Of a stretch of DNA of 64,000 nt, positions 1,846 to 17,876 are shown in pieces. Position 1 is the first letter of the stretch, and the number at the start of each line of letters is the position of its first letter. The notes below the pieces were generated by a model, which saw nothing but the letters and a program-made list of their open reading frames with translations, was not told the DNA's origin and ran no database searches. Both the position numbers and the translations under genes were made by a program. The DNA is taken from assembly GCA_965203055.1 (NCBI GenBank), contig OZ241863.1:4160001-4224000 (forward strand). Direction: 5' to 3'. Source of the DNA: Spirochaetia bacterium. Lineage in GTDB: Bacteria > Spirochaetota > Spirochaetia > SZUA-6 > Bin103.

Positions 1846-4791
1846 CTACCTTGACCTTGGGGCGGCCAACAGCATGGCGTCGAGCAGGCGCTTCTCGCGG
1901 GCGCCGCGCGGGTAGAGCGCCGACAGGGCGTTGGCCAGGCGCAGGAAGTCGGGGCCGCGCTCGTGCTCGGCCTTGAGCAGCGCGCGCAACGCGTTGGCGT
2001 GGCCGTTCGCCTGCAGCAGCATGGCGGCGTGCACGCGGTCGAGCGTGGTGGCCGCCACCGCCCGCAGCTCGACGTCGCCGTCCAGGATGCCCGCCCGGCG
2101 GCGCTTGCGGCCGCCGGCCCGGGGCGCGCGGTCCCACTCCGGGAACAGCGAGCGCTGCAGGCCGGCGGCCGGGTCGGCCTCGATCCAGTCGGCGGCGGCC
2201 CCGGCGCCGGCGTCGCCCAACAGGTCCTTGGCGCGCTCGGCCACCGGCAGCAGCCGCACCGTGCCCTTGGCCTGGGCGATGACGCGGCCGGTCCAGCGCC
2301 CCAGGTCGATGCCCATCGGCTGCGCGAAGCGGCGCACCACGTCGAACGGCAGGTTGAGGCTTTGGGCGCCCGCGTCTTCCTCGTCTCCCTCGTCGTCGCC
2401 CGCGCCGCGGCCATCGCCGCTGGCGTCGGTGGTCTGCAGCGTCCAGAGGAACAGCGCCGTGAGGCGCGCGTCTTCTTCCAGCGCGCCGGTCATGCCGTTG
2501 CGGGCGCGGGCTTCGGCGGCGCCGAGGACGGTTTCGAGGGCGGCGCGGCCGACCACCTCCCACACCTTTTCCAGGTACTCCGGCAGGCTGACCGTGCGCC
2601 CGGCGGCGGTCTCGACCGCGCGGTAGCGGCTGTAGAGTTCGAGCGCCGGGCCGATGCAGGCGAACACAAGGTCGGCGCCGCGCACGCCCTCGCCCTGCAG
2701 GCGCGCCATCCACTCGGCGACGCGCACCGGCAGCGCGCTCAGCACGTCGGCCCAATCGCCGACCGGCGCGTTGGCCGGCCGCGGCCGGCAGATCAGGTGA
2801 ATGCTGGTGGCCAGCGCGGCGGAATCGCGCGCCCTGAGGCGGTGGGCCTGCTCGGTCGCCACGGGCCAAGAACCAGTAATAGTCCATCCGCCGCGTGTAA
2901 TCCCGGCCAAAAGCGCTTCCCAACCTTCAGTGGTCTTGTGAGCAAAGACAACAGATGCAACGCCGTCTTCTCGTGTCACCCGCTTCCCCTCAGAGAATGC
3001 TTGCGCCATCGCGCTTTCAAAGAACTTTCTATCCTTGATACGTCCGTCGGCGGTCTTTGTTTCGTCATGAACCGCTTCTAAATGCTTTGGCGTCAGTCTG
3101 TTACTGGCATCGAACGGATCGCGGTGAATGTGTTCTGGAATAATGCGGCGATACCAAGTGAAGAAAAAATCGGAGAGATCAGAATACGGGATAGCGTCAT
3201 AGTAGGGAGGATCCGTGAACCACACAGCGGCTGCTTCGGTGGGCAGCGGTGATTGCTGTGCGGCGGCGAGTTCGGACTGCCCAACCAAGGGAATCCTTGT
3301 CACAGACGTAATTCCACTCGCGAGATTTTCTACACAAGTCCCGAAGCCACCGCTTGCCTGTGACGTGGCGACACCTTCAGCATAGTCCCATGCAGGCTTC
3401 AGGCGACCATTTGACATTACATTTCGAGGGCACTCTGCTATAGGTTCCCAGGGACAGACTGCGTTTGCCAAATCCGCGAGTTTGCCTATCGATAGTGATA
3501 GCGGTCGATTTAGTCGCTCTGCGATACGCATACTATTCCCAAGCGTGACTAGCGCCATCTTCTGCCTAGCGGAGAAGAGGTCGGCCCAGCGGAGCATGCC
3601 GTAGCGCTGCACGCGGAATCCCAGCGTGCCGATCGGCGGCAGCGGTTCGTCCGGCACTGGGCACAGTCCCTGCTTGCCGCCGCGCTCCCACTCGCCCAGC
3701 AGCGCCGCCAGCCGCTCCTGCGCCCGCCGCACTGCCGTGTAGTCCGCTTCCTCCGCCAACCGGTAGTGCCTCCCCGGCGCATCCGCCCGCAGCGTCACCA
3801 CCGCCGTCAGACGCGCGCCGCCCGTCCGCCGGCCCTCCGCGTCGAACACTGCATCGGCGCCTCCGCGCTGCGCCGCAAGCTGCGCCCGCACCCGCTCCGG
3901 CGCCAGCACCGCGCCGCAGCACAGGCACGCCGCCCGCGCCCGGGCCACCGTACCGCCCGGCACCTCCCCGTCCGCCGCCGGCGTGAACACCTCGAACCGC
4001 ACCACCGGCGGCCCCTCCGGCCGGCGCTCCACCCGATAGCGCAGCGCCCGCTTGCGCTTCGGCTTGCGGCACAGCCAGAACGAGCGCAGCAGCGGCAGCT
4101 CCGCCCCGCACTGCGGCGCCTCGCAACGCACCGTGCGCGCCCACAGGTAGGCGATCGGCGTGGCTCCGTCGGGGTCGGCCGGGTACATGTCGGCCAACTC
4201 CCGCGCCGCCGCGGCCCGTATCTCGCCGCTGGCCCGGCGCAGTTCGGCCGCCAGCCCGGGACCGTGCCGAGGGATATCCTCCAGCATCACCTTGAGGATC
4301 AGGCAGGCCACCGGGTTCAGGTCGCTGGCGAACGCCTCGCAGCCGAGCCGCAGCGCCTCCAGCGGGATCGAACCGCCGCCGGCGAACGGATCGACCACCA
4401 ACGGCGCCTCCTCGCCATGCGCGGCCCGCACCAGCTCGCGGCCGACGCGCAGATAGGTCGGGTGGGCCGCCAGGTCCCAGTTGGCGAACGCGCCGATGAA
4501 CCACAGCAGCGCGGCGCGCAGCTCGGCGTCATCCGCCGGCGGCTGCCGCACCGCGCCCAGGATGGCGCGCGCCTGCCGCTTGAAGGCGTCAGGGCAGTGC
4601 GGGTCGAGCGGATCGGGCAGCAGCAGGGCCAGCAGCACGGCGCGCGACGAGGCGAGCGGGCGCCGCGCCCACCAGAGATGGAGCGTGGACGGATGCCCGT
4701 GGCGGATCGACTTCTCCCGCGCCGCGTGCCGGGACACCTCGGCGATCGGAAAGTCGACCTCGGCCAGCCGCCGGCACGCTCGGGGAATCAC
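1846..4791 (-). CDS. DUF1156 domain adenine DNA methyltransferase
   Basis: LHLWWARRPLASSRA, DPFAGGGSIPLEA, a CxxC pair insert and FTDPPYY. Confidence 0.9.
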   Translation of the reverse strand: MIPRACRRLAEVDFPIAEVSRHAAREKSIRHGHPSTLHLWWARRPLASSRAVLLALLLPDPLDPHCPDAFKRQARAILGAVRQPPADDAELRAALLWFIGAFANWDLAAHPTYLRVGRELVRAAHGEEAPLVVDPFAGGGSIPLEALRLGCEAFASDLNPVACLILKVMLEDIPRHGPGLAAELRRASGEIRAAAARELADMYPADPDGATPIAYLWARTVRCEAPQCGAELPLLRSFWLCRKPKRKRALRYRVERRPEGPPVVRFEVFTPAADGEVPGGTVARARAACLCCGAVLAPERVRAQLAAQRGGADAVFDAEGRRTGGARLTAVVTLRADAPGRHYRLAEEADYTAVRRAQERLAALLGEWERGGKQGLCPVPDEPLPPIGTLGFRVQRYGMLRWADLFSARQKMALVTLGNSMRIAERLNRPLSLSIGKLADLANAVCPWEPIAECPRNVMSNGRLKPAWDYAEGVATSQASGGFGTCVENLASGITSVTRIPLVGQSELAAAQQSPLPTEAAAVWFTDPPYYDAIPYSDLSDFFFTWYRRIIPEHIHRDPFDASNRLTPKHLEAVHDETKTADGRIKDRKFFESAMAQAFSEGKRVTREDGVASVVFAHKTTEGWEALLAGITRGGWTITGSWPVATEQAHRLRARDSAALATSIHLICRPRPANAPVGDWADVLSALPVRVAEWMARLQGEGVRGADLVFACIGPALELYSRYRAVETAAGRTVSLPEYLEKVWEVVGRAALETVLGAAEARARNGMTGALEEDARLTALFLWTLQTTDASGDGRGAGDDEGDEEDAGAQSLNLPFDVVRRFAQPMGIDLGRWTGRVIAQAKGTVRLLPVAERAKDLLGDAGAGAAADWIEADPAAGLQRSLFPEWDRAPRAGGRKRRRAGILDGDVELRAVAATTLDRVHAAMLLQANGHANALRALLKAEHERGPDFLRLANALSALYPRGAREKRLLDAMLLAAPRSR

Positions 4792-4806
4792 GATAGAATA
4801 CGCCGC

Positions 4807-5892
4807 TCAACCAACGGATTGATCGCTAACCAGACGGCCGATCTCACCAACAGGAAGATCGACGGAATATAACCGGCGAACACCCGAAGTATACCTGTCC
4901 GGCTGAGTGAACTTGCGGGGTGTAGGGTATACGATCTGAACGTCATAGAGCACCGCTCGAAGTATCCCGACCGCCACGGCTTGCATCTTGCTGCCTGTAG
5001 GAGCAACCAAAATCCTATCAAACATGCTCCTATCCCTGTATATGTCAAGCAACACCTTCAACGTGTCCGTGTAATCGAGTGTGCTTGACTCAAAATACCC
5101 ATGACTACCTACAAAAGCGGATATTATCGACCTGTTCAGCCTCTGAATAGCCTCCTTACGCCATCTGTTCACTAAGGCAGGCCGTATGCCGTAAACGAGA
5201 TCAGTATAGGTAGGCTGCAACTCTTCAACCAAATTCTTGAGTTGAATAGGATCGAACGATGGAAATGCAACCAATCTGATTTCCGCACCTAGCATTGCAA
5301 CTGACGAAAGCGCGGCGTCAGTCGCGACTTCGAAAATACCAGACGACATATAGCTTAGCGAGGTAACACTACCCGTCCTAAAGCTACTGTGCAGGTCATT
5401 CTCAACCTGATCCTCAGTAGGAGAATAGGCTCTCGCTTCGGAGTAAAGTAACACCATCGGTATTGGTTGTCTATGAGTGGTACCAAGTAACGCTACAATA
5501 ATTTGAACGATGAGAAGCCGCGACATGCCGGATATATCAACAAATACCCGATCAAATCCACCTATCAAGTTCGCAACTTCACTTCCGATCCCTGATGGAT
5601 TTTCACGGTCATAGACAACATCCATAGTCCCTATATCGCACCTCTGACAAATCTCGCGAATATCATCATCAAGATTCTCAGGATAGTACGGCCGATAGGT
5701 AATAAGAATGAGTTTAAAGTCATGGAATCCATGGTGGCAAACCCGCCGCAATGCCTCAACGGACCGATCCTCAAAGCCGGCACACACAATAAGGCAGTCC
5801 CCACCATGAACTGGCGGAAAATCAATAGCCCGTGGCTCGGGCCATTGGATATTTCCTAGCTGCTCGTCTAACCTTAATAGCTCAATCACCAT
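4807..5892 (-). CDS. Hypothetical protein with two tandem Rossmann-like (CARF/DUF6293-like) repeats
   Basis: 361-aa low-GC ORF. Repeat 1: LIVCAGFEDRS...VFVDISGMSRLL...LLYSEA. Repeat 2: LVAFPSFDPIQ...ILVAPTGSKMQAVA...IVYPTP. The fold call is an inference. Confidence 0.6.
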   Translation of the reverse strand: MVIELLRLDEQLGNIQWPEPRAIDFPPVHGGDCLIVCAGFEDRSVEALRRVCHHGFHDFKLILITYRPYYPENLDDDIREICQRCDIGTMDVVYDRENPSGIGSEVANLIGGFDRVFVDISGMSRLLIVQIIVALLGTTHRQPIPMVLLYSEARAYSPTEDQVENDLHSSFRTGSVTSLSYMSSGIFEVATDAALSSVAMLGAEIRLVAFPSFDPIQLKNLVEELQPTYTDLVYGIRPALVNRWRKEAIQRLNRSIISAFVGSHGYFESSTLDYTDTLKVLLDIYRDRSMFDRILVAPTGSKMQAVAVGILRAVLYDVQIVYPTPRKFTQPDRYTSGVRRLYSVDLPVGEIGRLVSDQSVG

Positions 5893-5901
5893 ACGACCCG
5901 A

Positions 5902-8391
5902 TCATAAAGGTAAAACCTTCTGCTTTCCGTCGCTAGAACTAGAGTCGTCTTCAGACTGTGACCTAATCCTCATACTACTCTCAAACTCCGTTGGAAAACG
6001 CAACATCTTTTCAAGCTGATAACCCTCCAACTGTATCGAATCTCGTCGGCTAAAAGTAAGAAGAAAGTGGGGAATGAGATACCTTCTAAGGTAATAGCGG
6101 GGCACGGCTTTACCACGCCTACTCTTTCCACGTGGATCTTCAATAAACACTGAGTAGCGCAGTAATTCATGAAGAACTTCGCTAGCCTCGTCGGACAGTC
6201 GCAACTCGTCATATGGCTCGATTCGTGACGCTTGGTGGGGTGGAGTCGAATTTCTATTCTTCGACTTTTTGTGTAAAAGATAGGAATGAGCGACGTTCCC
6301 AAAAGCTGTGATAATATCTGCCAAATGCGGGCCTCTCCCAGGCAACGTACGTATGGACTCCACAAACTCCCCAGCAGCAGCACGTATCGACGCGTTCTGA
6401 GTGCGGACTGGTATTCGAGGGGCGCTAATCGATTTCGCAAGCGCGGTCTCGCCACCGTAGTCTTCGACCATCTTACTAACAAGGCGAATGATATAGTGAA
6501 TATCGCCGCTACACATTGCCGAGATAGTCTCACAGCCAGCAAAGTAGGGTCGTTCCCTGCCAGACTTGTTGTCCACGATAATGCGGCGAGCAATGGCGCT
6601 CTTACTCCCCGTATCATTGCCTAGAAGGTCACGCAAATTGAGAACGGGGTAATGCTCCACTTCACGGAATCTACGGCTGAATAGGTCCTCTATGAACTCC
6701 TGCCTCTTTTTGGATGCGTCTGTAAGATACCGTAGGCCGAGATTCAAAAGCTCGAATTCTCTGGACTCGACATATTTCTTACCGTCAATGTCTTGCCGAG
6801 AAAACGACACTGGACTCTCGGTGGATATTTTGAAGAATACGTCGGCACTACGATACATCAAAAGTCGATTGAGGTTTGCCTGTAATTCGCCGGTAATTTT
6901 TGGCTCCGAGTAATCGTCGATAAAGAAGTAGATCGGTCTGTCTTCCAAAAAAGAAAGGCAATGTCTGACTATCTCGCAGGCCCGTATCAAGTGGCTCGGC
7001 TCAAATAACGGACGGTCTATACGCATGGTACGGCGCATACGCACAGCGCTCTGCCTTTCTCGGCTCTTTAGTCGTCCAATCAACGCCGATAGCGTATCTC
7101 CGCCGGGATGCCTGGACGGCGTCAATTCAAAAAGACTCCATAACTCAGCAGCAAGCCGACGCTGGCAATTTGTAAACTCGTCTTGAAAATACCGCTGAGC
7201 CCAGGCCAAGATGTCCTCAAGCATTGTTGCGACCAAGGTGGCGACCAAATAGTGCATTGGAATGTCAAATCCGTCGGTTCTATCAGGGAGCCTATAGCGT
7301 GGAAACGCGAAATAGAGATCGTCACATCGATAATATATGCCGACAAATCGTATGTCGTGCGGGCGATCGTCTTGAATCGAAGTCAGATATTCGAGACTCA
7401 AAGCACGAAACACCGTCGTCTTGCCGCATCCCCTTGGTCCAGTCAAGACGAGATTTAAGCGAGCTCGGATTTCTGACAGTCCGAGTAGGCGGTCCGAATA
7501 CAGGCTCTTTAGCAACAAGTGGGAGTTTCCCATTTGCTCACAATTGGGATAATCAAAGGGCGTTACAAGCTTATGGTCTTTATTGACTCTAGTGTTCTCA
7601 CGATAGAGACTACCAATCGAACGGAGCTTACTAACGAGGGCCCGTGGATCGCCAGCTAGTCTATCCGCGGTTGGATCGGTCTCAATCAGATGCCTGCGTA
7701 GAAAATCGTCTCTTAGAACGTTGTATACGTAACGATCGCGGCCGTCACAGCTTCGATAGTCGACGCAATCAAGCAAGGCGCGAAGTGTCTCGGCAAGGAA
7801 TAGGTAGTCGCTTTGGTGTCTTGCTTTGCCGCTAAAGTAGTGGACACCGAAGTCCGTTACACGGAACATACTGCGGGCGTCTATATCGAATTCAGACTGG
7901 GCGACGAGTATGTTTCTGGCGTGAAGGTCGCCATGTGAGTATCGGCGCTGCTGGAGCTCATACAACAGACCGAGCATAGTTCCAAGGAATTGCTCGACAA
8001 AGCCAACGTCGACGGCCGACGAGTGCCTTTTCATATAGGTGCTCAAATCCATACCGTTAACGTAGTCGCATACGAATACCACACCTCGAAAATCAAAATC
8101 TATTGTCTGCTCGGTATACGAAAACACGTCGTGGTATCTGACCACGGCCTGATTCTCTAGCCCGTTGGCCTTTTTTGCTTCGGCCAAATATGCCTCTTGA
8201 TCGTTGCCGTCCTGCGGCAGGTTCTCAGCGGGAACGATTTTGAAGGCTAAGCTGCTTTCTGTTCGACGGTTGTAGGCACGAAACAGGTGGCCGTTGTTTC
8301 CGGAAGCAATGAGTTCCTGGATTACGTAATCAGGAAACCGAGGCATTGTCTTACCGAGGAAGTGGTCTGCATCTGGTAAGTGTTTCCTCAC
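5902..8391 (-). CDS. Protein kinase domain fused to ORC/CDC6-like P-loop ATPase
   Basis: Kinase: IASGNNGHLF, AFKIV, HGDLHARNILV, VTDFG. ATPase: Walker A GPRGCGKT, Walker B FFIDDY. The GTG start overlaps the stop of the upstream methyltransferase. Confidence 0.8.
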   Translation of the reverse strand: MRKHLPDADHFLGKTMPRFPDYVIQELIASGNNGHLFRAYNRRTESSLAFKIVPAENLPQDGNDQEAYLAEAKKANGLENQAVVRYHDVFSYTEQTIDFDFRGVVFVCDYVNGMDLSTYMKRHSSAVDVGFVEQFLGTMLGLLYELQQRRYSHGDLHARNILVAQSEFDIDARSMFRVTDFGVHYFSGKARHQSDYLFLAETLRALLDCVDYRSCDGRDRYVYNVLRDDFLRRHLIETDPTADRLAGDPRALVSKLRSIGSLYRENTRVNKDHKLVTPFDYPNCEQMGNSHLLLKSLYSDRLLGLSEIRARLNLVLTGPRGCGKTTVFRALSLEYLTSIQDDRPHDIRFVGIYYRCDDLYFAFPRYRLPDRTDGFDIPMHYLVATLVATMLEDILAWAQRYFQDEFTNCQRRLAAELWSLFELTPSRHPGGDTLSALIGRLKSRERQSAVRMRRTMRIDRPLFEPSHLIRACEIVRHCLSFLEDRPIYFFIDDYSEPKITGELQANLNRLLMYRSADVFFKISTESPVSFSRQDIDGKKYVESREFELLNLGLRYLTDASKKRQEFIEDLFSRRFREVEHYPVLNLRDLLGNDTGSKSAIARRIIVDNKSGRERPYFAGCETISAMCSGDIHYIIRLVSKMVEDYGGETALAKSISAPRIPVRTQNASIRAAAGEFVESIRTLPGRGPHLADIITAFGNVAHSYLLHKKSKNRNSTPPHQASRIEPYDELRLSDEASEVLHELLRYSVFIEDPRGKSRRGKAVPRYYLRRYLIPHFLLTFSRRDSIQLEGYQLEKMLRFPTEFESSMRIRSQSEDDSSSSDGKQKVLPL

Positions 8392-9605
8392 GCTGAACCA
8401 TTCCGGAAGACTAGTATATTCTCGTGTTTGACTCCGGAAATATGCCTGCGCGAACGTCGGATATCAGGTATCAAATCTTGCGTTATCGATCGAAGTTGAA
8501 ACCCCGGCGCTCGTACGGAAAATATTCGAATAAGTTCGTGAGATGGTGTACGCTCCTTGGATCGGGTAGTCCGGTCACCGACGACGAAGATGCAGTGGCC
8601 TCCCTTCTTTACTTTTTGGACCAACTGTGTTGCAAGAGCTTCGATTGCGCGCTTGAAGCCGTTGAGATTCTTAAGCATGCGGTCCGTTGATATACGTCGG
8701 TTGTCGCCAAGAAACCAAAGTCTTAGGCGATTGTCGCGCTCGTAGTCGAGCGCGTTCATATAGGGCGGGCTTGTGATGACGCAATCAATGTTGTCGGGGA
8801 GAGTTACGTTCTCTACGGTCGAACGGCGGATAGTACTAACGTAATCGCCTAGTGTGGTGCTGGGGGGACGCTTGAAGGCGCGGAGTACTTTTGCACGTAA
8901 TCTTGGTAATACGTCCCGATAGGCATAGAGATCGGAACATGTGTCGCGGGGAAATCGATTTGATCTGAGATACGGTACAAGATGACTGCTCGGGTACGAT
9001 AGAAAGCCAGGTCGTTGGTGATGTAGAATACCAAGTATGGAAGACAGTAGAAAGTAGCTTCGTTGTTCACGTAGTAGTGTAGATATACGAATAGTTTCTT
9101 GCAACGTAAGAGGATGAAAGAAATTCTGAACCCATCGTGGCACATCCGCAAGATCCGGCAACGGTAGAGATTTGGCTTGTGCTAAAAGATGATTCATCTC
9201 GGAGAGTGCCGTTTTTGCATTTTGTGGGGCATGGAGCTTCCCTTTGGTGAGGGTGACGGCATATGCGCTTGCGTCGGAAGCGAACACATTCCGTCCCAGA
9301 AGGGCGGCCTCAAGGGGTACCGTGCCGGAACCACAGAACATGTCTACCACTAGCTGGCCAGGCTCAGTATATGTTTCGATAAGGTCTCTAGCTATTGTAC
9401 TTTTAAGCTTACCGATATATGGGGACAACTGGTGTAGGGTACACTCTTGGTGAGTGCAAGGGGCAGACCAATGGGCCGGAGCAGGTTGGGGGGTGCCAAG
9501 TTCATTTAGTGGTAACTTATGAATGCTATGATGGTTGGTCGTTACGTCTGGCAGGGCGGATTTGCCAGACGCTGTCTGGCAAATCTCCGGTCGCGGGCCG
9601 ATCAT
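8388..9605 (-). CDS. DNA amino-methyltransferase (probably N4-cytosine)
   Basis: LHQLSPYIGK, motif I DMFCGSGT, motif IV ITSPPY. The ATG overlaps the stop of the upstream ORF. Confidence 0.85.
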   Translation of the reverse strand: MIGPRPEICQTASGKSALPDVTTNHHSIHKLPLNELGTPQPAPAHWSAPCTHQECTLHQLSPYIGKLKSTIARDLIETYTEPGQLVVDMFCGSGTVPLEAALLGRNVFASDASAYAVTLTKGKLHAPQNAKTALSEMNHLLAQAKSLPLPDLADVPRWVQNFFHPLTLQETIRISTLLREQRSYFLLSSILGILHHQRPGFLSYPSSHLVPYLRSNRFPRDTCSDLYAYRDVLPRLRAKVLRAFKRPPSTTLGDYVSTIRRSTVENVTLPDNIDCVITSPPYMNALDYERDNRLRLWFLGDNRRISTDRMLKNLNGFKRAIEALATQLVQKVKKGGHCIFVVGDRTTRSKERTPSHELIRIFSVRAPGFQLRSITQDLIPDIRRSRRHISGVKHENILVFRNGSA

Positions 9606-9880
9606 TGGGATTCACCGGCCGGCTGGAGGCCATGCCGGCACATGGCGTCGCGCGCGCGGGCGATTTCCGCTGCCAGGAGTTCGTCCTCGGGTGGGGTGGT
9701 TTGGTACTCGGCGGTCAGCACGTGGTTCGGCAGGCCGTTGAGCGCATAGGAGGCGACCGCGGCACTCTTCTGAGCATAGAAGATCGAGCCTTCGGGGTGG
9801 ATCAGATTCTCCAGACACCGTCTGGAGAATTCATTCATGGGGGAGCAGGCAGATTTGCCAGACAGTGTCTGGCAAATCTG
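9546..9880. repeat. Three related perfect palindromes plus one half-site (ATTYKCCAGAC-N3-GTCTGGMRAAT)
   Basis: 9559-9585 gatttgccagac-gct-gtctggcaaatc; 9806-9830 attctccagac-acc-gtctggagaat; 9850-9880 cagatttgccagac-agt-gtctggcaaatctg; half-site gtctggca at 9546-9553. Confidence 0.9.
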
Positions 9881-10096
9881 ATCTATCCGAAAAGAGAGAT
9901 AGAATTGGCGCATCTGCTGAATGTTCTGACGTGAAAAGCCGCGCCCGAACCGTTGCGTCAGATCCACCGCGAGTCTGGCGAGGAGCGCGGCGCCGTATGC
10001 CTCCACGATGCGCTGGCCGATCATCCAATAGGCGGCGGTCATGGCCGCGTTTACCGACCGGACAGCCGCGCTGTCGTTGATCGTCTCAGCGTCCAC
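9602..10096 (-). pseudogene. DUF1016/YhcG remnant with the nuclease core deleted
   Basis: The N-terminal part (AVRSVNAAMTAAYWMIGQRIVE...RFGRGFSRQNIQQMRQFY) is joined almost directly to a YhcG-like C-terminal tail (YALNGLPNHVLTAEYQT); only 164 aa. Confidence 0.75.
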
Positions 10097-10926
10097 GCGT
10101 TGCGTCCTTCCAGAGTCGGACCGTGAAGCGGTACTCCTCGGCGATCAGGTCGGGCTCGGTACCGTTGTGGGCCTTCATCCCGGGGATGATCTTGTTGCGC
10201 ACTCCCATGCCGCGGCCATCGACGTATCCGTAATCGCGCATGACGTTGACCAGAAGCGGATTGTGGGCAAACCGGGTGCCCAGCTTCATGTCCTCGGGGG
10301 GTACGATGTTGGGACGCCGGACGGGGGCTCAAGATTTCCAGGCGGTTGGAGTATATGACCAGCATGACGTCGGTGCCGGCGATGCTGTAGTCGCGGTGGA
10401 TGAGCGCATTCGCCACCGCTTCGCGGATCACCTCTTCCGGGTATTCCGAACCGTCGCCCCGCCGGGGGCCGTCGAGCCGCGCGGCAGGCGTCGTGTTGCG
10501 GCGTACGAAGTCCCACGCCTGATCCACCAACCCCGGCTCCAGCGGCAGTCCATCCTGGGTGCGAAGCGGGGTCATCGGTCCGCGCAGATCTTCGTCGGCG
10601 CGGACCGCCTTGCCCGGCTGCTCGCCGGGGTAGCAGATCGCCCGAATGCCAGATTGCGCCAGCCAACGCTTGGGGTTCGTTCCGAACAGGAGCATCCCGG
10701 CGATGGTCGCGATCGGCTTCTCCATTACGGTCGTGGCCATGTTCCAGTTCGACAGCACGGCCCACCATGCGCCGGGATCGTCGCCACTCGGAGCATCGTC
10801 CGCCAGTACGGATGCGGCGTACTCGTGCAGGCGGCGGAGATCGAACGTACCGATCTCCGCAAGTGGGGCCGTCGGCACCGGCTTCAACGTATAGCGAGCC
10901 AGATCCGGGTATGTTGTTCTGTTCAT
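10086..10926 (-). pseudogene. RecG-C-terminal-like (HATPase_c_4) ATP-binding protein, frameshifted
   Basis: YPEEVIREAVANALIHRDYS...RLEILSP in one frame continues as PNIVPPEDMKLGTRFAHNPLLVNVMRDYGYVDGRGMG in another; frameshift near 10315. The usual N-terminal AlbA domain is absent. Confidence 0.75.
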
Positions 10927-13900
10927 GGTGGCGGGGACGCTCCGTAGGGGATGATACCACGTTCGCGGATTTCCATGGGCGGCTGCAGGGCGTCGATGCT
11001 CAGCCAGTAGTGCTGGACCTTCATCACCTCGCGCCACGGGAAGCGGGCGGGGTCGCGGACCGGCTCCTGCAGCGTGGGGGCGGTGGCGCAGTCGGTGACC
11101 ACGTACAGCCAGTAGCAGTCGGGCCGGTCCTCGGCGACGCGGCGCTCGTTCGGAGTGAGCAGGATGCTGCCGGCCGCGCCGGCCAGTCCCTTCACCTCGA
11201 TCAGGCGCAGCTCGCCCGATTGCAGGTCCAGGCTGGTCACGTCGTAGCCCAGGTTCTTCTCGTGCACGTCGTAGACCTGCCGGCCCTCCGCGGCCTCATG
11301 CCGCATGACGGTCCGCATCGCCGTCAGCTCGGTCTCGGGATCGGGGCGCAGCCGGCGCACCGCCGCGGCGTCCCGTTCCGGGTGGGGCAGGATCAGCGCG
11401 CTGGCCAGCCGTTCGACCGCCTGCAGGGTGACCGCCCGCTGCCGCCCCGACTCCTCGCGGCGGCGCTCGCGGCGCGCCAGCAGCTCGGCGTGGCGCGCCT
11501 CGGCCTGGGCCAGGCGCCCCTCGGCGCCGGCGGCCTCGTGTTCCGGGTCATCGGCGGCGCGGCCGATCTCGTGATCGACGCGCTGCAACACCTCGGTCAG
11601 CGCCAGCTCGACGTGGCCGGCGACGCGGTCGACCTCGGCCACGCGCTCGGCGCGCACCTCGTCCAGGAACGGCGCCAGCGCGCGCTCGTGGAGCCAGCCG
11701 GTCGCCTCCGGGAGGGACGCCGCGGCCGGCAGCTCGGCGGGAGCGGGCGCCGGGCTCAGGTTGCCGAGCAGGTCCGGGCCGCGCAGGCGCGGCTCGCCGC
11801 CGGCGGTCAGCTCCACCGCGAACAGCCGTTCGTGGATCACGCGGCCCAGGCCGTCCACGATGCGCGCGCGGTAGCAGTCGAGGCGCGCCGGCGCGGCGTG
11901 CGCCAGCGAGTGGAAGCAGGCGCCGCGGCTGCAGGCATCCTGCCCGCGCGCCAGGCTATGCCGGCGCAGCGCCTCGAACAGCGGATGGCCGGGGGTGACC
12001 CATTCCAGCGCCTGCCGCTCCGCGGTGTCGCGGTCGGTGGTGAGCCGCGGGTAGCGCGCGGCCAGCGCCGGCAGCTTCCAGTCCGGGTCGCGCTCGTGGC
12101 GGCGCAACGCCGCCGGCGTGCGCCCGGGATCGAAGGTATGCGCCATGCCGCGCACCGGCCGCAGCGGCAGGGCCGCGCCGCCGGCGCACTCGGCGATGAA
12201 GCGGGCGATCGTCTCCGGCACCACCCGCCGCTCCTGCGCGCGGGCGCGGCGCTCGATCAGCAGGTCCAGGTTGAGCTTGCGGGCGGCCAGTCCTTCCAGG
12301 GCGGTCCGGCAGATCGACCGGAAGCGCCCCTCGTCCACGTCGCGCAGCAGCCGCTCCTCCAGGTCGGCGTCGCCCAGCTTGCCGGCGTAGTAGTCGCGCA
12401 GCACGCGCTCCACCTGCGCGGACGGCAGCACCTCGCCCACCACGTTGAACACCGCGTCGTCGTCGAGGGCGTCGCGGATCTCCCGGAGCCTGTCCAGCAG
12501 CCGCCGCAGCACGCGGCCCTCGATGGTGTTGGCCGCCACGAAGTTGAAGATCAGGCAGTCGCGCCGCTGCCCGTAGCGGTGGATGCGGCCCATGCGCTGC
12601 TCCAGCCGGTTCGGGTTCCACGGGATGTCGTAGTTGAACAGGATGTGGCAGCACTGCAGGTTGATGCCTTCGCCGGCCGCCTCGGTGGCGACCAGCACCT
12701 GGATCTCGCCGTCGCGGAACCGCTGCTCGGCGTGCAGCCGCGTCCCCGGTTCGTCGCGCGCGCCCGGCTTCATGCCGCCGTGGATGCAGCCCGCGGCGAA
12801 GCCCCACGCCGTGAGCCGCTCCAGCAGGTAATCGAGCGTGTCCCGGAACTCGGTGAAGATCAGCAGCCGCTGGCCGGGCCGGTCGAAGAACCCCTCATCC
12901 CGCATGATCGACCGCAACCGGCGCAGCTTCGCCTCGCTGCCCGCGGCTTCGACCGCCTGCGCCTGCCGCGCCAGGCCGCGCAGCTCGGCCGCTTCCTCCC
13001 GCACCTGCGCGGCGTTGCCGGCCAGCGTGACCGCCTCCAGGATGCGCTCCAGCCGTTCGCGCTCGGCGTCTTCGAGCTCGTCGAGCTCATCCTGGTCGGG
13101 AAGCTGCGGCGGCGCCGCGCGCAGCAGCTCGCGGGCGCGGCTCAGTCCCTCCTCCAGGCGCCGCGCCCGGTTTTCGAGCGACCGCCGCAGGGCATGGGTG
13201 CTCGACGCCAGGCGCCGCTGGTACAGCGCCATAAGGAATCCCACGGCGCGCGCCCGCGGGTCGTCGTCCTGCGCCGCGGCGCGGGCGCTCTGCCGTTTCA
13301 CGAAGCGCGTGACCGTGCGGTAGAGCTCGTGCTCGGCGCCGTCGATGGCGAAGCCGGCGGTACGCGCGATGCGCTTGGTGAATACCGGCCGGGCAGTCCA
13401 GGCGCCGTTCTCCTGCCGCTCCGGGAAGTAGACCATCGCCTCCTTGGTGCGGCGCAGGTAGAACGGGGCGCGCCGCTGCTCCATCGCCCGGCGGATCGAG
13501 GTCACGTCGGCGTAGGCGTCCCGGTCGAGGAGCTGCAGGAACAGCGTGAAGTTGCCGGCGTCGCCCTTGTGCGGGGTGGCGGTCAGCAGCAGCACGTGAT
13601 CGGCGCGGTCGCGCAGCAGCTCGCCCAGCCGGTAGCGCTGGCTCTTGTGGGTCTCGTCCCGCGCCGACATGCGGTGCGCCTCGTCGACGATCACCAGGTC
13701 CCAGCGCACCTGCGCCAGTCCGGGCAGGATGTCGGCGCGCTTGGCCAGGTCGAGCGAGGTGATGACCTGCCGCTGCTCCAGCCACTGGTTGACGCCGAAC
13801 TGGCCGCGCAGGTCGGCGCCCTTCAGCACGACGAACCGCTCCTCGAACTTCTCGTTGAGCTCGCGCTGCCACTGGAACGCCAGGTTCGCGGGGCCGACCA

Positions 13901-14405
13901 CCAGGATGCGTTCGATCAGGCCGCGCAGCTTGAGCTCGCGGATCAGCAGGCCGGCCATGATCGTCTTGCCGGCGCCGGCGTCGTCGGCCAGCAGGAAGCG
14001 CACGCGCGGCAGCTTGAGGAGGTGTTCGTAGACCGCTTCGAGCTGATGCGGCAGGGGGTCCACCCGTGAGATCGACAGCCCGAAGTAGGGCTCGAACTCG
14101 TAGGCGATGCCGAGCGCGTAGGCCTGCAGGGCGAGGCGCAGCAGCCGGCCGTCGCCGTCATAGGAGCGGGCGGCGTCGGCGATGGTCAGCGCGGCGAGGT
14201 CGGCCGCGGTCAGCGTGACCCGCCGGAACCGCTCCGACTGCCGGCCGACCAAGCCCGCGATCCAGGTGTCCGGCCCGTTCGAACGCACCGTCTCCACCAG
14301 CATCGGCTCGCTGAACAGCGGGCCGCTCAGAATCTGTCCTTCCCGGATGGCGGAGATGGCGGCCGCGGAGCTTGCGGTCGATGGCACGGAGGGAGTATGC
14401 CCCAT
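10923..14405 (-). CDS. SNF2-family helicase with C-terminal DUF3883 nuclease-like domain
   Basis: LLADDAGAGKT, VIVDEAHR, LLTATPH, TEAAGEGINLQ, EQRMGRIHRYGQ; C-terminal GYDVTS...LIEVKG. Start uncertain (ORF open to 14456). Confidence 0.9.
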   Translation of the reverse strand: MGHTPSVPSTASSAAAISAIREGQILSGPLFSEPMLVETVRSNGPDTWIAGLVGRQSERFRRVTLTAADLAALTIADAARSYDGDGRLLRLALQAYALGIAYEFEPYFGLSISRVDPLPHQLEAVYEHLLKLPRVRFLLADDAGAGKTIMAGLLIRELKLRGLIERILVVGPANLAFQWQRELNEKFEERFVVLKGADLRGQFGVNQWLEQRQVITSLDLAKRADILPGLAQVRWDLVIVDEAHRMSARDETHKSQRYRLGELLRDRADHVLLLTATPHKGDAGNFTLFLQLLDRDAYADVTSIRRAMEQRRAPFYLRRTKEAMVYFPERQENGAWTARPVFTKRIARTAGFAIDGAEHELYRTVTRFVKRQSARAAAQDDDPRARAVGFLMALYQRRLASSTHALRRSLENRARRLEEGLSRARELLRAAPPQLPDQDELDELEDAERERLERILEAVTLAGNAAQVREEAAELRGLARQAQAVEAAGSEAKLRRLRSIMRDEGFFDRPGQRLLIFTEFRDTLDYLLERLTAWGFAAGCIHGGMKPGARDEPGTRLHAEQRFRDGEIQVLVATEAAGEGINLQCCHILFNYDIPWNPNRLEQRMGRIHRYGQRRDCLIFNFVAANTIEGRVLRRLLDRLREIRDALDDDAVFNVVGEVLPSAQVERVLRDYYAGKLGDADLEERLLRDVDEGRFRSICRTALEGLAARKLNLDLLIERRARAQERRVVPETIARFIAECAGGAALPLRPVRGMAHTFDPGRTPAALRRHERDPDWKLPALAARYPRLTTDRDTAERQALEWVTPGHPLFEALRRHSLARGQDACSRGACFHSLAHAAPARLDCYRARIVDGLGRVIHERLFAVELTAGGEPRLRGPDLLGNLSPAPAPAELPAAASLPEATGWLHERALAPFLDEVRAERVAEVDRVAGHVELALTEVLQRVDHEIGRAADDPEHEAAGAEGRLAQAEARHAELLARRERRREESGRQRAVTLQAVERLASALILPHPERDAAAVRRLRPDPETELTAMRTVMRHEAAEGRQVYDVHEKNLGYDVTSLDLQSGELRLIEVKGLAGAAGSILLTPNERRVAEDRPDCYWLYVVTDCATAPTLQEPVRDPARFPWREVMKVQHYWLSIDALQPPMEIRERGIIPYGASPPP

Positions 14406-14557
14406 CCATCGCAAAGATGCCGTCCGGCGGCACCACCGCAACCGCCACGGCAACACTGGCAGAGGGCGGCTACGATCGGTACCAGAACCTGTATTGGGCG
14501 CGCCAAACGCTGTACGGCAAGCAGCTTCGGGTTCAGGTAGTGGAAGGGTGAGTCAGG

Positions 14558-15721
14558 TCACTCACGGTCGAACAGGCTTCCGGTCACCACCTGCAGCAGC
14601 CGTTCCCGTATCGTTCGGCTGGAGGCCGCCAGATCGACGGTGGCGAAGCGCACTTCGTGGCCCTGGATGACCGCGGCTTCGTAGACGCTCCCCCGGACTG
14701 ACGGGTGCAGCAACATTCCGGTCGCGCCGAGCGACCGCGGATCGTCCGGTCGCTCCTGCGACCGGACGTAAGCGTATATCTGGTAGAGATGTCCACTGTG
14801 GAACGTCTCTTTCCCGTAATGGCCCGACGCCACGATCGACGTGAACTTGGTGTCGATGATGATTCGGCGGTCGCGGGATTCGAGCACTATGTCGGCCGTC
14901 ATCGACGGGAGGAGCGCACTCAGTCCGGATGTGCCGCCTTCCACCTGCCAATGCATCTGCCTCCCTGTCCGGGTGGTCCACTCCGATGGCGGCAACACCA
15001 CGTCGTAGAAGCCGCCCACCGCCGCTTCGAACAGCCTCCGCGCCCAGTGCTCATCGCGGTCGGGCGAACGCAGATACGCTCCGCCGGCGGTCTCGGTTGG
15101 CAGCGCGAGGCTGAAGGCGAGTTCGGCCGCGGCCATCATGGTCCGGTCCTCCGGGTCCATGCGTCCCCGCAACTCGGCGGCGGCGCCGCTCCGTCCGCGC
15201 GGGCTGGCCAGAGCGGGGTCGGAGCTCACGCCGGCGGCCTCCAGGCGGGCGCCCGCGGCGCGGCACCGGGAAGCCAGCTCCGCCGTGCCGACCACCGGGA
15301 CCAACTGCTGCGCGGCGGCCCGTACGTACCGATTGCGCGGCGTGTCGACCGTCAGTTCCTCGTACCGGCAGGCGACTCGGCCCCGCCGCAGCAGGTGACG
15401 CCGTTCGGTGCGCAGCAGGTCGATGCGGCCGCGCACGCGCCTCAGGTCCGCGCTGGTTTCCTGGAATGCGAAGCTCAGGTTGCGCCGCAGCCGCCGCTCG
15501 ATGGCGCGGGTAAGGAGCTGCGCCACCAGGTCGGGGAGCTCATCCGGGTTGTCCTCGACGGCGACCCGCCGAGCCGGCGGCAGCTCCCGGTAGAGACGGG
15601 AGGCGTACAGCATCAGCAGCCAGAGGTTGCGGATCGGAATCCGGCCGACGTTGCCGCGGCCAGCGGCGACTGCCGGCTCACTCGCGGCGGGCAGCGCCGC
15701 CTCCGTACCGTCGGCCGCCAT
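14558..15721 (-). CDS. mcrC: McrC-family restriction subunit
   Basis: RIPIRNLWLLMLYAS, LFEAAVGGFY, MTADIVL...IIIDTKF, HLYQIYAY. The start overlaps the mcrB stop. Confidence 0.88.
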   Translation of the reverse strand: MAADGTEAALPAASEPAVAAGRGNVGRIPIRNLWLLMLYASRLYRELPPARRVAVEDNPDELPDLVAQLLTRAIERRLRRNLSFAFQETSADLRRVRGRIDLLRTERRHLLRRGRVACRYEELTVDTPRNRYVRAAAQQLVPVVGTAELASRCRAAGARLEAAGVSSDPALASPRGRSGAAAELRGRMDPEDRTMMAAAELAFSLALPTETAGGAYLRSPDRDEHWARRLFEAAVGGFYDVVLPPSEWTTRTGRQMHWQVEGGTSGLSALLPSMTADIVLESRDRRIIIDTKFTSIVASGHYGKETFHSGHLYQIYAYVRSQERPDDPRSLGATGMLLHPSVRGSVYEAAVIQGHEVRFATVDLAASSRTIRERLLQVVTGSLFDRE

Positions 15722-17865
15722 CAGAGGTCCGCGAGCAGGTGCTTCTCCCGGGCATCGGCCTTGTCGGGCTGGTCGAACCAGTATTCGCGGAGCAGCGGCC
15801 CGATCTCCGTTTCGACCACCTCGCGGTACCACGCTTCCGGGCTGGCGATACGGGTCTCCGGCGCGACCGTAAGATAGCTGTGGCCCACCCGAAACTGCCT
15901 GCCCAGACTGGCGTCCGCCGAGATTGCTTCGTTCAGCGCATCCATTCGGTCGGCAACGTTCCCCAGGAAGCTATCTTCGAAGCCTCCTTGATCCCGCATC
16001 CACCGGCGCCATGACTCGCCGAAGACCGGCTCCAGATCGACGAACGCGAACCGGCGGCGCAGCGCCAGATCGACCAGGGCCAGCGACCGGTCGGCGACGT
16101 TCATGGTGCCGATCAGATAGACGTTGGGCGGAACGTGGACCCGCTCGCGTTCATCACGAGGAAAGGCGAGCGCCAGCGCCTCGTCCGGCGTCCGCTTGTC
16201 GGCCTCCAACAAGGTGAGCATCTCGCCGAAGATCTGCGCCGGGTTCCCGCGATTGATCTCCTCGATCACCATGACGTAGGCGTGTTCGGGATCGTTCCGC
16301 GCCTCCTCCGTCAACTTCAGGAGCGGCCCGTTGGTCAGTTCCAGCAGTCCCTCGACCGGACGATGGCCGCGCACGAAGTCCTCGTATGACAGGTTGGGAT
16401 GAAATTGCAGATGGCGGATTCGGCCCTCATCCTTGCGGCCGAGCAAGGCGAACGCCAATTTCTTGGCCAACCAAGTCTTGCCCGTCCCCGATGGTCCCTG
16501 CAGAATCAGGTTCTTACGAGTCCGCAACCGGCGGAGCACCTTGTCGAGCGCTTCCCGTGGAAGGAAGCAGCCATCGGCGAGAATAGCGTCGATGGTGTAC
16601 TCGGCGGGCGGTGGTGGCGGCTCTGGATCGCGGCCATCACCGTCGTGCGTCGATTGCCCGTTGTCAATTGGTTTGGAGTCGTTTTGGTTATACGCTGACC
16701 ACGTCAATTCCGGGAACGAGCGGACCGGAGTGTCCGGTTCACGGAATCGCCCCAGCAGCCGGTCCCTCAATTCCAGGTATTCCCGGGCATTTCCGGGGAG
16801 GACACCTTCTCCCAGTCTATCCTCGATATACTTGAACGAGCTCTTGTCCAGCGAAGGGAAGCTCCCCGGACGAATCCAGTAGAGGCCCATGGTAAGCTTG
16901 GGGACACCGACCTGCTTTACGGTCAGTGCGTCGTCGTAGGACCGTACGAATGCCTCGCGAAAACGTTCATCGTCCATGTCGGCGACTTCTATTGCGTCAG
17001 AAAACAATCTCCACAAAGCGTCGATATCGCCAGGTTTGCGATCTCTGGTGTGGCCGAAGAACCGAACGTTCCAGTTATTCGCCAACGGTATTCCATCTAT
17101 TTTCCAATCCAACGCAGGAGTCGGTTCCTGTACTCCGAGAAAGGTCGCCAACTCGCTGGCGATGCTCCGGCGATTGGCGTCCTTTATATTTCTATTGACA
17201 AGTCCAATGGTCGTAAAGGGACAGATATCCTGAAGGGGACTGGGGCCATCGTCGAATTGGTCGAGCGGGAAAGGGCGACTGAGCCGAGCGGAAATCGCAT
17301 GCAGCTCGGCGATCAGAGGACCGCGGTCGTCCCGGTATTGCAGCAGCTTGTCAGCTATCTCGGAGAAGAACTCAGTCCATCTAAACCGACCCTTATCTAT
17401 CCAGTTTGGCGATTTCAGGAAGCTCTCGACGTCCTGTTGCTCGCCGTCGAGCGCGAACCGGACCAGCGCGGCCGATGCTCCCGACGAGGGCTGAACTTTC
17501 CAGATCGTCCTGTGATGGGTGTAGAAGTACCACTCTCGCGGCGGACGCACCGGCTTCCAGGCAACTTTCAATCGGCGGCCGTCGCCCAGGTTCTCCGTGA
17601 CTTCGCCGACGGCCTTGATCTTCAGTGCCGAGACCGGTACTCCACGATTGTCGAACGGCAACCCCTGCTTCCGTGTGTACGTCGACTTGATGACGATCCG
17701 GTCGCCGGGCCGGACCGACTTGACCTCATCGAGGTAACGATCGGTATCTCCGTTTTCCCACACCCCTTCCGCCAGGAAACGCTCGGTCTGATCCGGCGGC
17801 TCGTGGTCGTGCCACGTAGCCCCGACGAACCAGACCGGACGCTCTAGCGTCGTGGAGTGATCCAT
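15721..17865 (-). CDS. mcrB: McrB-family AAA+ GTPase
   Basis: GPSGTGKT, QFHPNLSYEDFV, IEEINRGN, GTMNVADRS, ALRRRF. ATG 17865 has AGGA upstream. Confidence 0.9.
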   Translation of the reverse strand: MDHSTTLERPVWFVGATWHDHEPPDQTERFLAEGVWENGDTDRYLDEVKSVRPGDRIVIKSTYTRKQGLPFDNRGVPVSALKIKAVGEVTENLGDGRRLKVAWKPVRPPREWYFYTHHRTIWKVQPSSGASAALVRFALDGEQQDVESFLKSPNWIDKGRFRWTEFFSEIADKLLQYRDDRGPLIAELHAISARLSRPFPLDQFDDGPSPLQDICPFTTIGLVNRNIKDANRRSIASELATFLGVQEPTPALDWKIDGIPLANNWNVRFFGHTRDRKPGDIDALWRLFSDAIEVADMDDERFREAFVRSYDDALTVKQVGVPKLTMGLYWIRPGSFPSLDKSSFKYIEDRLGEGVLPGNAREYLELRDRLLGRFREPDTPVRSFPELTWSAYNQNDSKPIDNGQSTHDGDGRDPEPPPPPAEYTIDAILADGCFLPREALDKVLRRLRTRKNLILQGPSGTGKTWLAKKLAFALLGRKDEGRIRHLQFHPNLSYEDFVRGHRPVEGLLELTNGPLLKLTEEARNDPEHAYVMVIEEINRGNPAQIFGEMLTLLEADKRTPDEALALAFPRDERERVHVPPNVYLIGTMNVADRSLALVDLALRRRFAFVDLEPVFGESWRRWMRDQGGFEDSFLGNVADRMDALNEAISADASLGRQFRVGHSYLTVAPETRIASPEAWYREVVETEIGPLLREYWFDQPDKADAREKHLLADL

Positions 17866-17876
17866 GTCAATTCCTG

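Follow-up and report, generated by a model that had tools for sequence, protein, structure and literature searches.

We have analyzed a stretch of 64,000 nucleotides (nt) from the genome of a Spirochaetia bacterium (positions 4,160,001 to 4,224,000 of contig OZ241863.1), termed the window, in which positions 4807-9605 of the minus strand carry three tightly coupled genes. Gene 1 encodes a DNA methyltransferase (the methylase), gene 2 a kinase-ATPase and gene 3 a tandem CARF protein, and together they are called the trio. Comparison of loci indicates that the trio is a horizontally mobile, conserved unit and a swappable cargo. We consider the chances evenly balanced that it is a self-contained, nuclease-free, methylation-linked defense cassette with a kinase as its effector, carried here between the hmaA and hmaB genes of an Hma system. 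Coordinates are positions in the window unless a locus is named, protein lengths are in amino acids (aa), and the trio comprises the following features.

8388-9605, minus strand: gene 1, DNA methyltransferase, 405 aa; PF01555 N6_N4_Mtase (E 1.1e-12), PADLOC MTase_II (E 3.3e-21)
5902-8391, minus strand: gene 2, kinase plus ORC/Cdc6-like AAA+ ATPase, 829 aa; Pkinase and PF24389
7840-8328, minus strand: protein-kinase domain of gene 2, residues 22-184, from the N-lobe to DFG with a short activation segment; Pkinase (E 1.2e-12)
5905-7479, minus strand: ATPase part of gene 2, residues 305-829, with a conserved C-terminal region; PF24389 (E 2.2e-53, in two stretches)
4807-5892, minus strand: gene 3, tandem CARF-like protein, 361 aa; first half at about residues 31-175, second half at about 200-330

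The stop codon of gene 1 falls on the GTG start of gene 2 in a GTGA overlap, and the gap between genes 2 and 3 is exactly 9 nt. The GC content of the trio is 0.493, compared with 0.708 in the remainder of the window; in 500-nt bins it is 0.46-0.52 across 5001-9500 and 0.63-0.78 on the flanks and over most of the window. An earlier interpretation made from the letters alone, the sequence-only reading, had described three closely coupled genes in a low-GC block, set between the helicase and methylase of a restriction-like operon and devoid of a recognizable nuclease motif. That description holds. The flanking genes are HmaA and HmaB of an Hma system, and the trio proteins match no nuclease family in Pfam, PADLOC or NCBIfam, with the PADLOC result for gene 1 covering the best 25 of its 49 families. 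No NCBIfam model of any kind is reached by a trio protein. A scan for promoters and terminators gave counts near chance and no clear signal.

Conservation of the trio and its exchange as cargo

There are 697 relatives of the gene 2 protein at E ≤ 0.001 among 8000 scored candidates. The best 119 of these are 797-848 aa in length with 54-77% identity and all contain both Pkinase and PF24389; the sole name given to them by any source is 'protein kinase'. Taking one genome per species, we surveyed the loci of at least 114 gene 2 relatives and kept 79 distinct loci. These lie in bacteria (Acidobacteriota, Nitrospirota, Pseudomonadota, Myxococcota, Bacteroidota, Chloroflexota, Planctomycetota and candidate phyla) and in archaea (haloarchaea, methanogens, Bathyarchaeia and Thermoplasmatota).

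Linkage of the three genes is conserved among these loci, as the sequence-only reading had anticipated. Among the 69 loci that have at least 1150 nt of upstream sequence, 66 have a gene 1 homologue there in the same orientation, and a gene 3 homologue follows downstream in 69 of 70. Of 65 loci with enough sequence on both sides, 62 contain all three genes in unchanged order on one strand, and the kinase genes of the other three (L048, L055 and L059) are truncated or fragmentary. Intergenic spacing is mainly -4 to +4 nt. The identities of the three proteins to those of the window co-vary with r of 0.81-0.96 over 63 loci, a value that is descriptive and not an independent test because the loci are related. 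No fourth gene is conserved, any further gene recurring in 8 of the 79 loci at most.

The composition and distribution are those expected of a mobile unit. In 54 of 62 loci the trio falls more than 3 points below its flanks in GC content, and in just 2 it is higher. The window genome has a single copy, and the full gene 2 protein is absent from all 60 related genomes searched, in which there are only two partial matches: one to the ATPase region at 30% identity (G017) and a weak match to the kinase alone (G056). At the G017 locus (L095) the kinase-ATPase gene is split by a transposase of the Mutator family, with a methylase gene upstream and a CARF gene downstream. The kinase-ATPase gene is interrupted also in L023, L043, L054, L059 and L073, with a gap between the remaining open reading frame (ORF) and the CARF gene of ~1.6 kb in L023 and L073 and ~2.3 kb in L059. 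Such interruptions could reflect a gene that is costly to its host, or errors of assembly.

The clearest view of the trio as cargo is obtained by comparison with genome G011, from the same family and another genus. The relevant features are listed here.

10923-14456, minus strand: HmaA, SNF2 helicase with NOV_C; PADLOC HmaA (E 1.7e-167), Pfam SNF2-rel_dom, Helicase_C and NOV_C
9550-9605, minus strand: left cargo junction; G011 homology stops near 9550, just past the palindrome, from blastn and reading of both sequences
4792-4807, minus strand: right cargo junction; G011 homology restarts at the gene 3 stop codon, 15 nt before the GTG start of HmaB
1846-4791, minus strand: HmaB, DUF1156 adenine methylase; PADLOC HmaB (E 4e-102), PF06634
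L084:7073-9859, outside the window: HmaC, DUF499 ATPase; PADLOC HmaC (E 5.2e-90)

HmaA, HmaB and HmaC are thus all matched, with several genes embedded among them. G011 contains an Hma locus in which HmaA is 98.8% identical in protein sequence (98.5% over 3477 nt of DNA) and HmaB 85% identical. Homology continues through a YhcG gene remnant and a palindromic element (both described below) to the left junction, and resumes exactly at the right. In place of the trio the G011 slot (L112:10860-12730) holds an unrelated ORF of 189 aa that has no Pfam match, followed by a 306-nt copy of the 5' end of HmaB, two small ORFs and then the full HmaB gene. The arrangement suggests that cargo is exchanged through recombination on the 5' sequence of HmaB. 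Because the near-identical G011 locus has a different gene in this position, the trio is one of several alternative cargoes of the hmaA-hmaB slot.

The left junction also affects gene 1. G011 shares its ATG at 9605 and first ~18 codons, which there begin an ORF of 30 codons. These codons are absent from the methylase family, to which similarity begins near residue 35-45. The annotated N-terminus of the methylase is therefore chimeric with sequence of the host locus.

Cargo embedded in Hma is not peculiar to this genome. Payne et al. (bioRxiv 10.1101/2024.01.29.577857) report that embedded genes are habitual in Hma and frequently prove to be defense systems, several candidates having been shown by experiment to be anti-phage. 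A 2026 survey (PMC12839542), in which Hma is renamed the 'Type-1 DUF499-centred BREX-related system', likewise stresses embedded auxiliary effectors. The lineage is rich in Hma-type loci: genome G000 by itself has 19 matches to HmaB, including a second copy of Hma with an HmaB that is 86% identical.

The trio is found within other host systems too. Host systems were assigned by scanning representatives, and for the remaining loci by BLASTP clustering. HmaB directly follows the CARF gene in five loci (L004, L007, L017, L024 and L042), and HmaA directly precedes the methylase in L004 and L007. The Mod and Res genes of type III restriction-modification (R-M) systems bracket the trio in five others (L002, L011, L013, L016 and L018), L003 being a rearranged case, and type III-like methylases lie upstream of it in L050 and L076. 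Type I genes adjoin it in L060 (HsdM and HsdS), L072 and L027. Other neighbors include transposases, an integrase, a relaxase and defense-type genes (DruA, NERD-UvrD, GmrSD, TIR-WD40 and Fic). Since the neighbors elsewhere are mobile-element, other defense-type or housekeeping genes, the cassette can stand alone.

A FastTree phylogeny of 59 kinase-ATPases places the window with L001 (support 93) inside a clade of 14 rows (support 99). This clade includes all six Hma cases and five type III cases, and a twelfth row, L006, adjoins an Mrr-ResIII protein. The two kinds of host are interleaved, as in the pairing of L007 (Hma) with L011 (type III) at a support of 100, and the well-supported branches require at least three changes of the Hma label and at least four of the type III label. 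Transfer of the cassette from one host system to another has therefore occurred repeatedly.

A thyX gene (PF02511) adjoins the trio in 8 of the 79 loci (L019, L025, L051, L008, L076, L064, L065 and L073), and in L019 and L051 the gap between it and the methylase is 3 nt. The thyX loci are scattered in the tree, with at least four label changes required by well-supported branches.

The three proteins and the exchangeable effector

The sequence-only reading assigned gene 1 as a methyltransferase with an SPPY motif, and this is confirmed. PF01555 is matched at 48.9 bits against a cut-off of 26.7. The S-adenosylmethionine (AdoMet) motif I lies near residue 88-96 and SPPY at 279-282, with ~180 residues between them, and among 59 homologues G92 and S279-P280-P281-Y282 are invariant. 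Among solved structures the best matches are DNA cytosine-N4 methyltransferases (E 6e-9), and these align over AdoMet motif I only.

In gene 2 we find a kinase with intact catalytic motifs fused to a P-loop ATPase, again as had been proposed. The kinase domain matches PF00069 at 48.3 bits (cut-off 31.7), with the catalytic lysine, the HxD...N loop and DFG all present, and in profile comparison it comes closest to ordinary Ser/Thr protein kinases (E 1.6e-21). Across the same set of 59 homologues K51 (at least 90%), H153, D155, H157, N160, D180 and F181 are invariant or nearly so. The ATPase matches PF24389 from residue 305 at 182.3 bits (cut-off 27). Its Walker A sequence is GPRGCGKT, in which G318, R320, G321, C322, G323 and K324 are invariant, placing an arginine inside the P-loop, and the Walker B residues D492 and D493 are invariant too. 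The ESM Atlas clusters closest to the ATPase half consist of stand-alone 'ORC-CDC6 family AAA ATPases' 560-630 aa long.

The third protein had been described as a two-repeat Rossmann or CARF-like protein. Its sequence gives little indication of fold in Pfam, where Csa3_N alone appears, below threshold, and the PADLOC model 'CARF6--CARF_CARF_CARF' (PDLC01917) is matched at E 6.5e-14. An AlphaFold2 model from an alignment of 64 sequences has a mean predicted local distance difference test score (pLDDT) of 94.1 and a predicted template modeling score (pTM) of 0.94, and it has the fold of a tandem CARF-type sensor. In a structural search against representatives the first match is Can1 (6sce_A), with Z 15.1 and a root-mean-square deviation of 4.1 for 241 residues over 31-330 of the model. 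Card1 (Z 12.8), Csa3 (11.9) and Can2 (11.7) follow, with Csm6, Cam1 and SAVED domains also found; ranks 1-25 are all CARF or SAVED, and both halves of gene 3 align to CARF domains. Foldseek agrees, with a template modeling (TM) score of 0.47 for 6sce and weak matches (TM 0.23) to tandem universal stress proteins. The invariant or nearly invariant residues are G39 F40 E41 R43, D119 S121 M123 S124, F210 P211 and P298 T299 G300 S301 K302. In the model they map to the loops after beta1 and beta4 (beta1-alpha1 and beta4-alpha4) of both halves, which is the predicted location of the canonical CARF ligand site.

Genes 2 and 3 are found joined in a single chain. Residues 42-836 of protein P0279 (1237 aa, with Pkinase and PF24389) align colinearly with gene 2 (E 8e-23), and residues 920-1223 match the gene 3 profile with an hhalign probability of 98.8% (E 7e-17, 285 columns). 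The PADLOC model CARF6--CARF_STK_AAA (PDLC01925, 1187 positions) is matched by gene 2 at E 1.8e-29 and by gene 3 at E 2.8e-10, with gene 2 on positions 495-724 and gene 3 on 891-1178, in the same order. Longer, fused relatives of gene 3 were not found with a single sequence as query; a profile search gave four. Of 1.84 billion cluster representatives, 1783 match the gene 3 CARF family at E ≤ 0.001, of which 406 do so at E ≤ 1e-30. Fusions occur in a few of these, to a calcineurin-like phosphoesterase (P0174 and P0276-P0278), to HisKA/HATPase_c (P0223) or to TIR (P0261).

Swapped N-terminal effectors beside ATPase homologues, which the sequence-only reading had envisaged, are present within the phylum. 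PF24389 occurs in 3 of 401 of its genomes, namely G000, G215 and G414. In G215 a SIR2_2 domain is fused ahead of an ORC-CDC6-like ATPase, and the next gene encodes a gene 3 homologue of 348 aa (probability 96.2%, E 2e-9, 294 columns); the contig ends at this locus. In G414 the order is PRTase-CE (PF24390), a stand-alone ATPase and then a protein of 191 aa that matches one CARF half (probability 80%, 45 columns). PRTase-CE is a family that appears in a table of PMC13712802 with type III-A retrons. Replacement of the kinase by SIR2 (fused) or PRTase-CE (adjacent) in homologous pairs of ATPase and CARF protein supports an effector role for the kinase, and so favors the earlier proposal that the N-terminal domain is the effector. 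A core of ATPase plus CARF with interchangeable outputs reads as the grammar of an immune sensor-effector module in which the kinase would occupy the effector position.

Relation to known systems, proposed working and alternatives

The sequence-only reading did not recognize this combination as any named system, and in that respect it requires correction. Makarova et al. 2014 (PMC4012209) describe a family in which kinase, AAA+ and CARF are fused, with an arginine in the P-loop as a hallmark. The trio has the same kinase, the same arginine-P-loop AAA+ ATPase (with R320 invariant) and the same CARF family, and genes 2 and 3 match the CARF6 models of PADLOC. Because that architecture was published in 2014 and the models exist, the trio is not wholly new. 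It differs from the fused family as described there in being split over two genes, in having a methyltransferase that makes it a three-gene operon, and in that a Zn ribbon is not seen. No description or test of the three-gene operon with its methylase was found in the literature searched. The present analysis adds the SIR2 variant, the fused form of 1237 aa, the recurrence of the trio within both Hma and type III R-M systems, and the cargo swap seen in G011.

Several methylation-based systems resemble the trio in part. BREX type 2/Pgl, as treated in PMC12839542, shares a basis in methylation, an ATPase of the ORC/Cdc6 clade and a Ser/Thr kinase as candidate abortive effector. The trio lacks PglZ, parts of the BrxA/BrxB type and the NERD nuclease, and has a CARF sensor that BREX lacks; its methylase, a small enzyme with SPPY, is distinct from PglX, and it is HmaB, not gene 1, that weakly matches PglXI. 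In PADLOC none of the trio matches PglZ, BrxC or PglW, and PglX is unmatched by gene 1 (these results again covering the best 25 of 49 families for gene 1); without PglZ, BrxC or PglW the trio is not BREX type 2. MADS (mad1-mad8) likewise has a methylase, a kinase and ATPases, and the gene 2 kinase matches mad6 (E 1.5e-17) and gene 1 mad2 (E 1.5e-7). The similarity is only generic, the NCBIfam MAD6 model scoring 18 bits against a cut-off of 460. According to PMC13662399, MADS has eight genes, of which two ATPase-nuclease modules (MAD3-MAD4 and MAD7-MAD8) are needed for defense. The trio has neither module, and is therefore not MADS.

Gene 3 has the fold of Can1, Card1, Can2, Csm6 and SAVED, forms a one-chain tandem-CARF pseudo-dimer like Can1, and has its conserved loops at the canonical ligand site. 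Unlike Can1-type sensors it carries neither a nuclease nor any other fused effector domain, and the cassette shows no link to CRISPR type III or CBASS (cyclic-oligonucleotide-based anti-phage signaling) and contains no cyclase. Compared with classical type II R-M the trio has no restriction endonuclease family and no conserved fourth gene in the 79 loci. We considered a degenerate type II R-M system that has lost its nuclease and rejected it, as the nuclease is absent from 79 of 79 loci and the genes for the kinase-ATPase and CARF protein are kept intact. The HEC and PDC models of PADLOC-DB 2.0.0 (E ≤ 0.01) give no match for genes 2 and 3, and none among the best 25 of 49 families for gene 1. 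In the main text of the Payne et al. preprint 'kinase' appears once (deoxyribonucleoside kinase) and 'CARF' never, so that this text gives no pointer to the trio. The sister cassettes with SIR2 or PRTase-CE have the same ATPase family PF24389, the same CARF family and the same gene order, and differ in the effector. The comparison suggests an NTPase-centered, methylation-linked module with modular effectors.

We propose the following manner of working. The near-constant presence of the methylase and its intact catalytic motifs suggest that it would mark the DNA of the host itself. The ORC/Cdc6-like ATPase would bind DNA and report that which is unmarked or foreign, by analogy with BrxC/PglY and HmaC; the survey PMC12839542 groups the BrxC/PglY, BrxD and DUF499 ATPases from methylation-based systems in the ORC/Cdc6-like clade. 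The tandem CARF protein is predicted to bind a nucleotide-type ligand, and to form a complex with the ATPase and gate it, a pairing that we propose because of the fold, the conserved ligand loops and the fused form. The N-terminal kinase would be the output, phosphorylating proteins of the host or the phage and so halting infection, and no nuclease would take part in the response.

A number of observations weigh against this proposal. We found no experiment on any member of the trio in the literature, and defense is thus inferred. Searches of Pfam and PADLOC reveal in the cassette neither a cyclase nor another enzyme that would obviously make a CARF ligand, and they reveal no nuclease. The profile match of the kinase to solved kinases is confined to residues 10-187, up to DFG, and only ~12 residues separate DFG from the next invariant aspartate, giving a very short activation segment. 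From these features the domain looks to be a stripped-down kinase, which may be atypical and act on something other than protein, or may serve mainly as an ATP-dependent switch. Many loci have housekeeping neighbors (S-adenosylmethionine synthetase, tRNA ligase, chaperonin) in place of defense genes. The chimeric N-terminus of the window methylase counts on the same side. Lastly, the definition of CARF6, from which the PADLOC model names derive, reportedly comes from Makarova et al. 2020, and that work may already describe the operon.

The main rival is that the trio is a guard or accessory of its host restriction system, whether Hma, type III or type I R-M, sensing inhibition or overload of that system with the kinase as a back-up. 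It would then resemble the anticodon nuclease PrrC, which resides within a type I R-M locus. The clade described above, with its intermixed Hma and type III embeddings and L006 beside Mrr-ResIII, is in keeping with such a role, as is the abutment of the cassette on HmaA and/or HmaB at -3 to +10 nt in L004, L007 and L042. The survey PMC12839542 makes the case that BREX-related loci commonly harbor embedded auxiliary effectors as a back-up. However, the cassette has a methylase of its own, most of the loci examined have housekeeping genes or transposases around them and no host system, and three unrelated kinds of host would demand three different sensing interfaces. Moreover the hmaA-hmaB slot accepts unrelated cargo, as in G011. 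We consider a guard role unlikely on balance. A different possibility is that the kinase-fold domain is no protein kinase and has a small molecule or nucleotide as its substrate, producing or removing the CARF ligand in a closed second-messenger circuit. This would account for a CARF sensor with conserved ligand loops and yet no known cyclase in the cassette, and it is consistent with the truncated match to solved kinases, in which no activation-loop/APE region can be recognized, and with the assignment of the ABC1 atypical-kinase family PF03109 to many gene 2 homologues in precomputed Pfam lists. But a kinase domain that served only to signal would leave the cassette without an effector, the same position is occupied in the sister cassettes by SIR2 and PRTase-CE, both classical effectors, and the closest profile matches are to ordinary Ser/Thr protein kinases, as noted above. 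Such a circuit seems to us quite improbable.

The low GC content and patchy distribution could also be explained if the cassette served a mobile element, in epigenetic addiction, exclusion or replication control by means of the ORC/Cdc6-like DNA binder and the methylase. ORC/Cdc6 proteins are replication initiators by ancestry, and transposases, an integrase and a TrwC relaxase are nearby in several loci. Among the 2.9 million viral contigs of IMG/VR two (L085 and L086) have all three genes and a third (L087) has a kinase-ATPase match only; these are the only three full-length matches in that large collection, which speaks against this role. The cassette is moreover usually a bare three-gene block with no other genes of an element, it recurs within defense systems, and its sister cassettes carry the defense effectors SIR2, PRTase-CE and TIR. 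We think service to an element very doubtful. The reading that we prefer to these three is a defense cassette with the kinase as effector. It can be extended to a general form of R-M-like immunity that operates without a nuclease, in which methylation would mark self, the ATPase would read the mark, a CARF protein independent of CRISPR and CBASS would read a nucleotide cue other than cyclic oligoadenylate, and phosphorylation would be the response. Effectors would be interchangeable on the core of ATPase plus CARF protein (kinase, SIR2 or PRTase, with TIR or phosphoesterase on the CARF side), and the cassette would lodge preferentially between the methylase and helicase-nuclease genes of other systems that resemble restriction. 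We advance this extension tentatively, as a possibility somewhat short of even.

If the proposal is correct, CARF signaling extends beyond CRISPR type III into a separate and widespread family of methylation-linked modules, and discrimination based on methylation is coupled to phosphorylation, or to attack on NAD or nucleotides, in place of DNA cleavage. The series of kinase, SIR2 and PRTase-CE effectors provides ready natural controls for experiments, and the near-identical Hma locus with other cargo illustrates the exchange of defense cassettes inside a host system. Until a phenotype is demonstrated we regard the interest of the trio as good and not exceptional.

Other features of the Hma locus

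Two further guests lie between HmaB and HmaC. A gene at 1-1836 on the minus strand is a GmrSD-like homologue of HEC-05 (E 8e-37), and L084:10472-11713 (minus strand) encodes an ABC ATPase like HEC-01A (E 3e-49).

Between the trio and HmaA there are degraded genes. The minus strand at 9602-10096 has the remnant of a YhcG/DUF1016-type gene (PADLOC PDC-S02, E 3e-26) in which the N- and C-terminal parts are kept and the nuclease core is missing. Next to it a gene at 10051-11037 (minus strand) is frameshifted near 10320, and its two frames together resemble an ATP-binding protein of regulator type. The ORF weakly matches the Aga_SIR2-PNTD and pAgo models of PADLOC (E 1e-9 to 3e-6), and it is probably a dead embedded passenger.

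A palindromic element of ~32 nt, with arms of 12 nt around 3 nt, is present in three copies at 9555-9586, 9801-9832 and 9848-9879, sited just upstream of and within the start of the methylase ORF. Two copies are near-perfect and one is 66% alike. The perfect core has no other occurrence in the 4.56-Mb genome, and G011 has a copy at the same place. The element may be an operator, or a recombination site at the left edge of the cargo slot. Upstream of HmaA an ORF of 750 aa at 15721-17973 (minus strand) weakly resembles the models of type II restriction enzymes (E 3e-16) and mad8 (E 1e-5).

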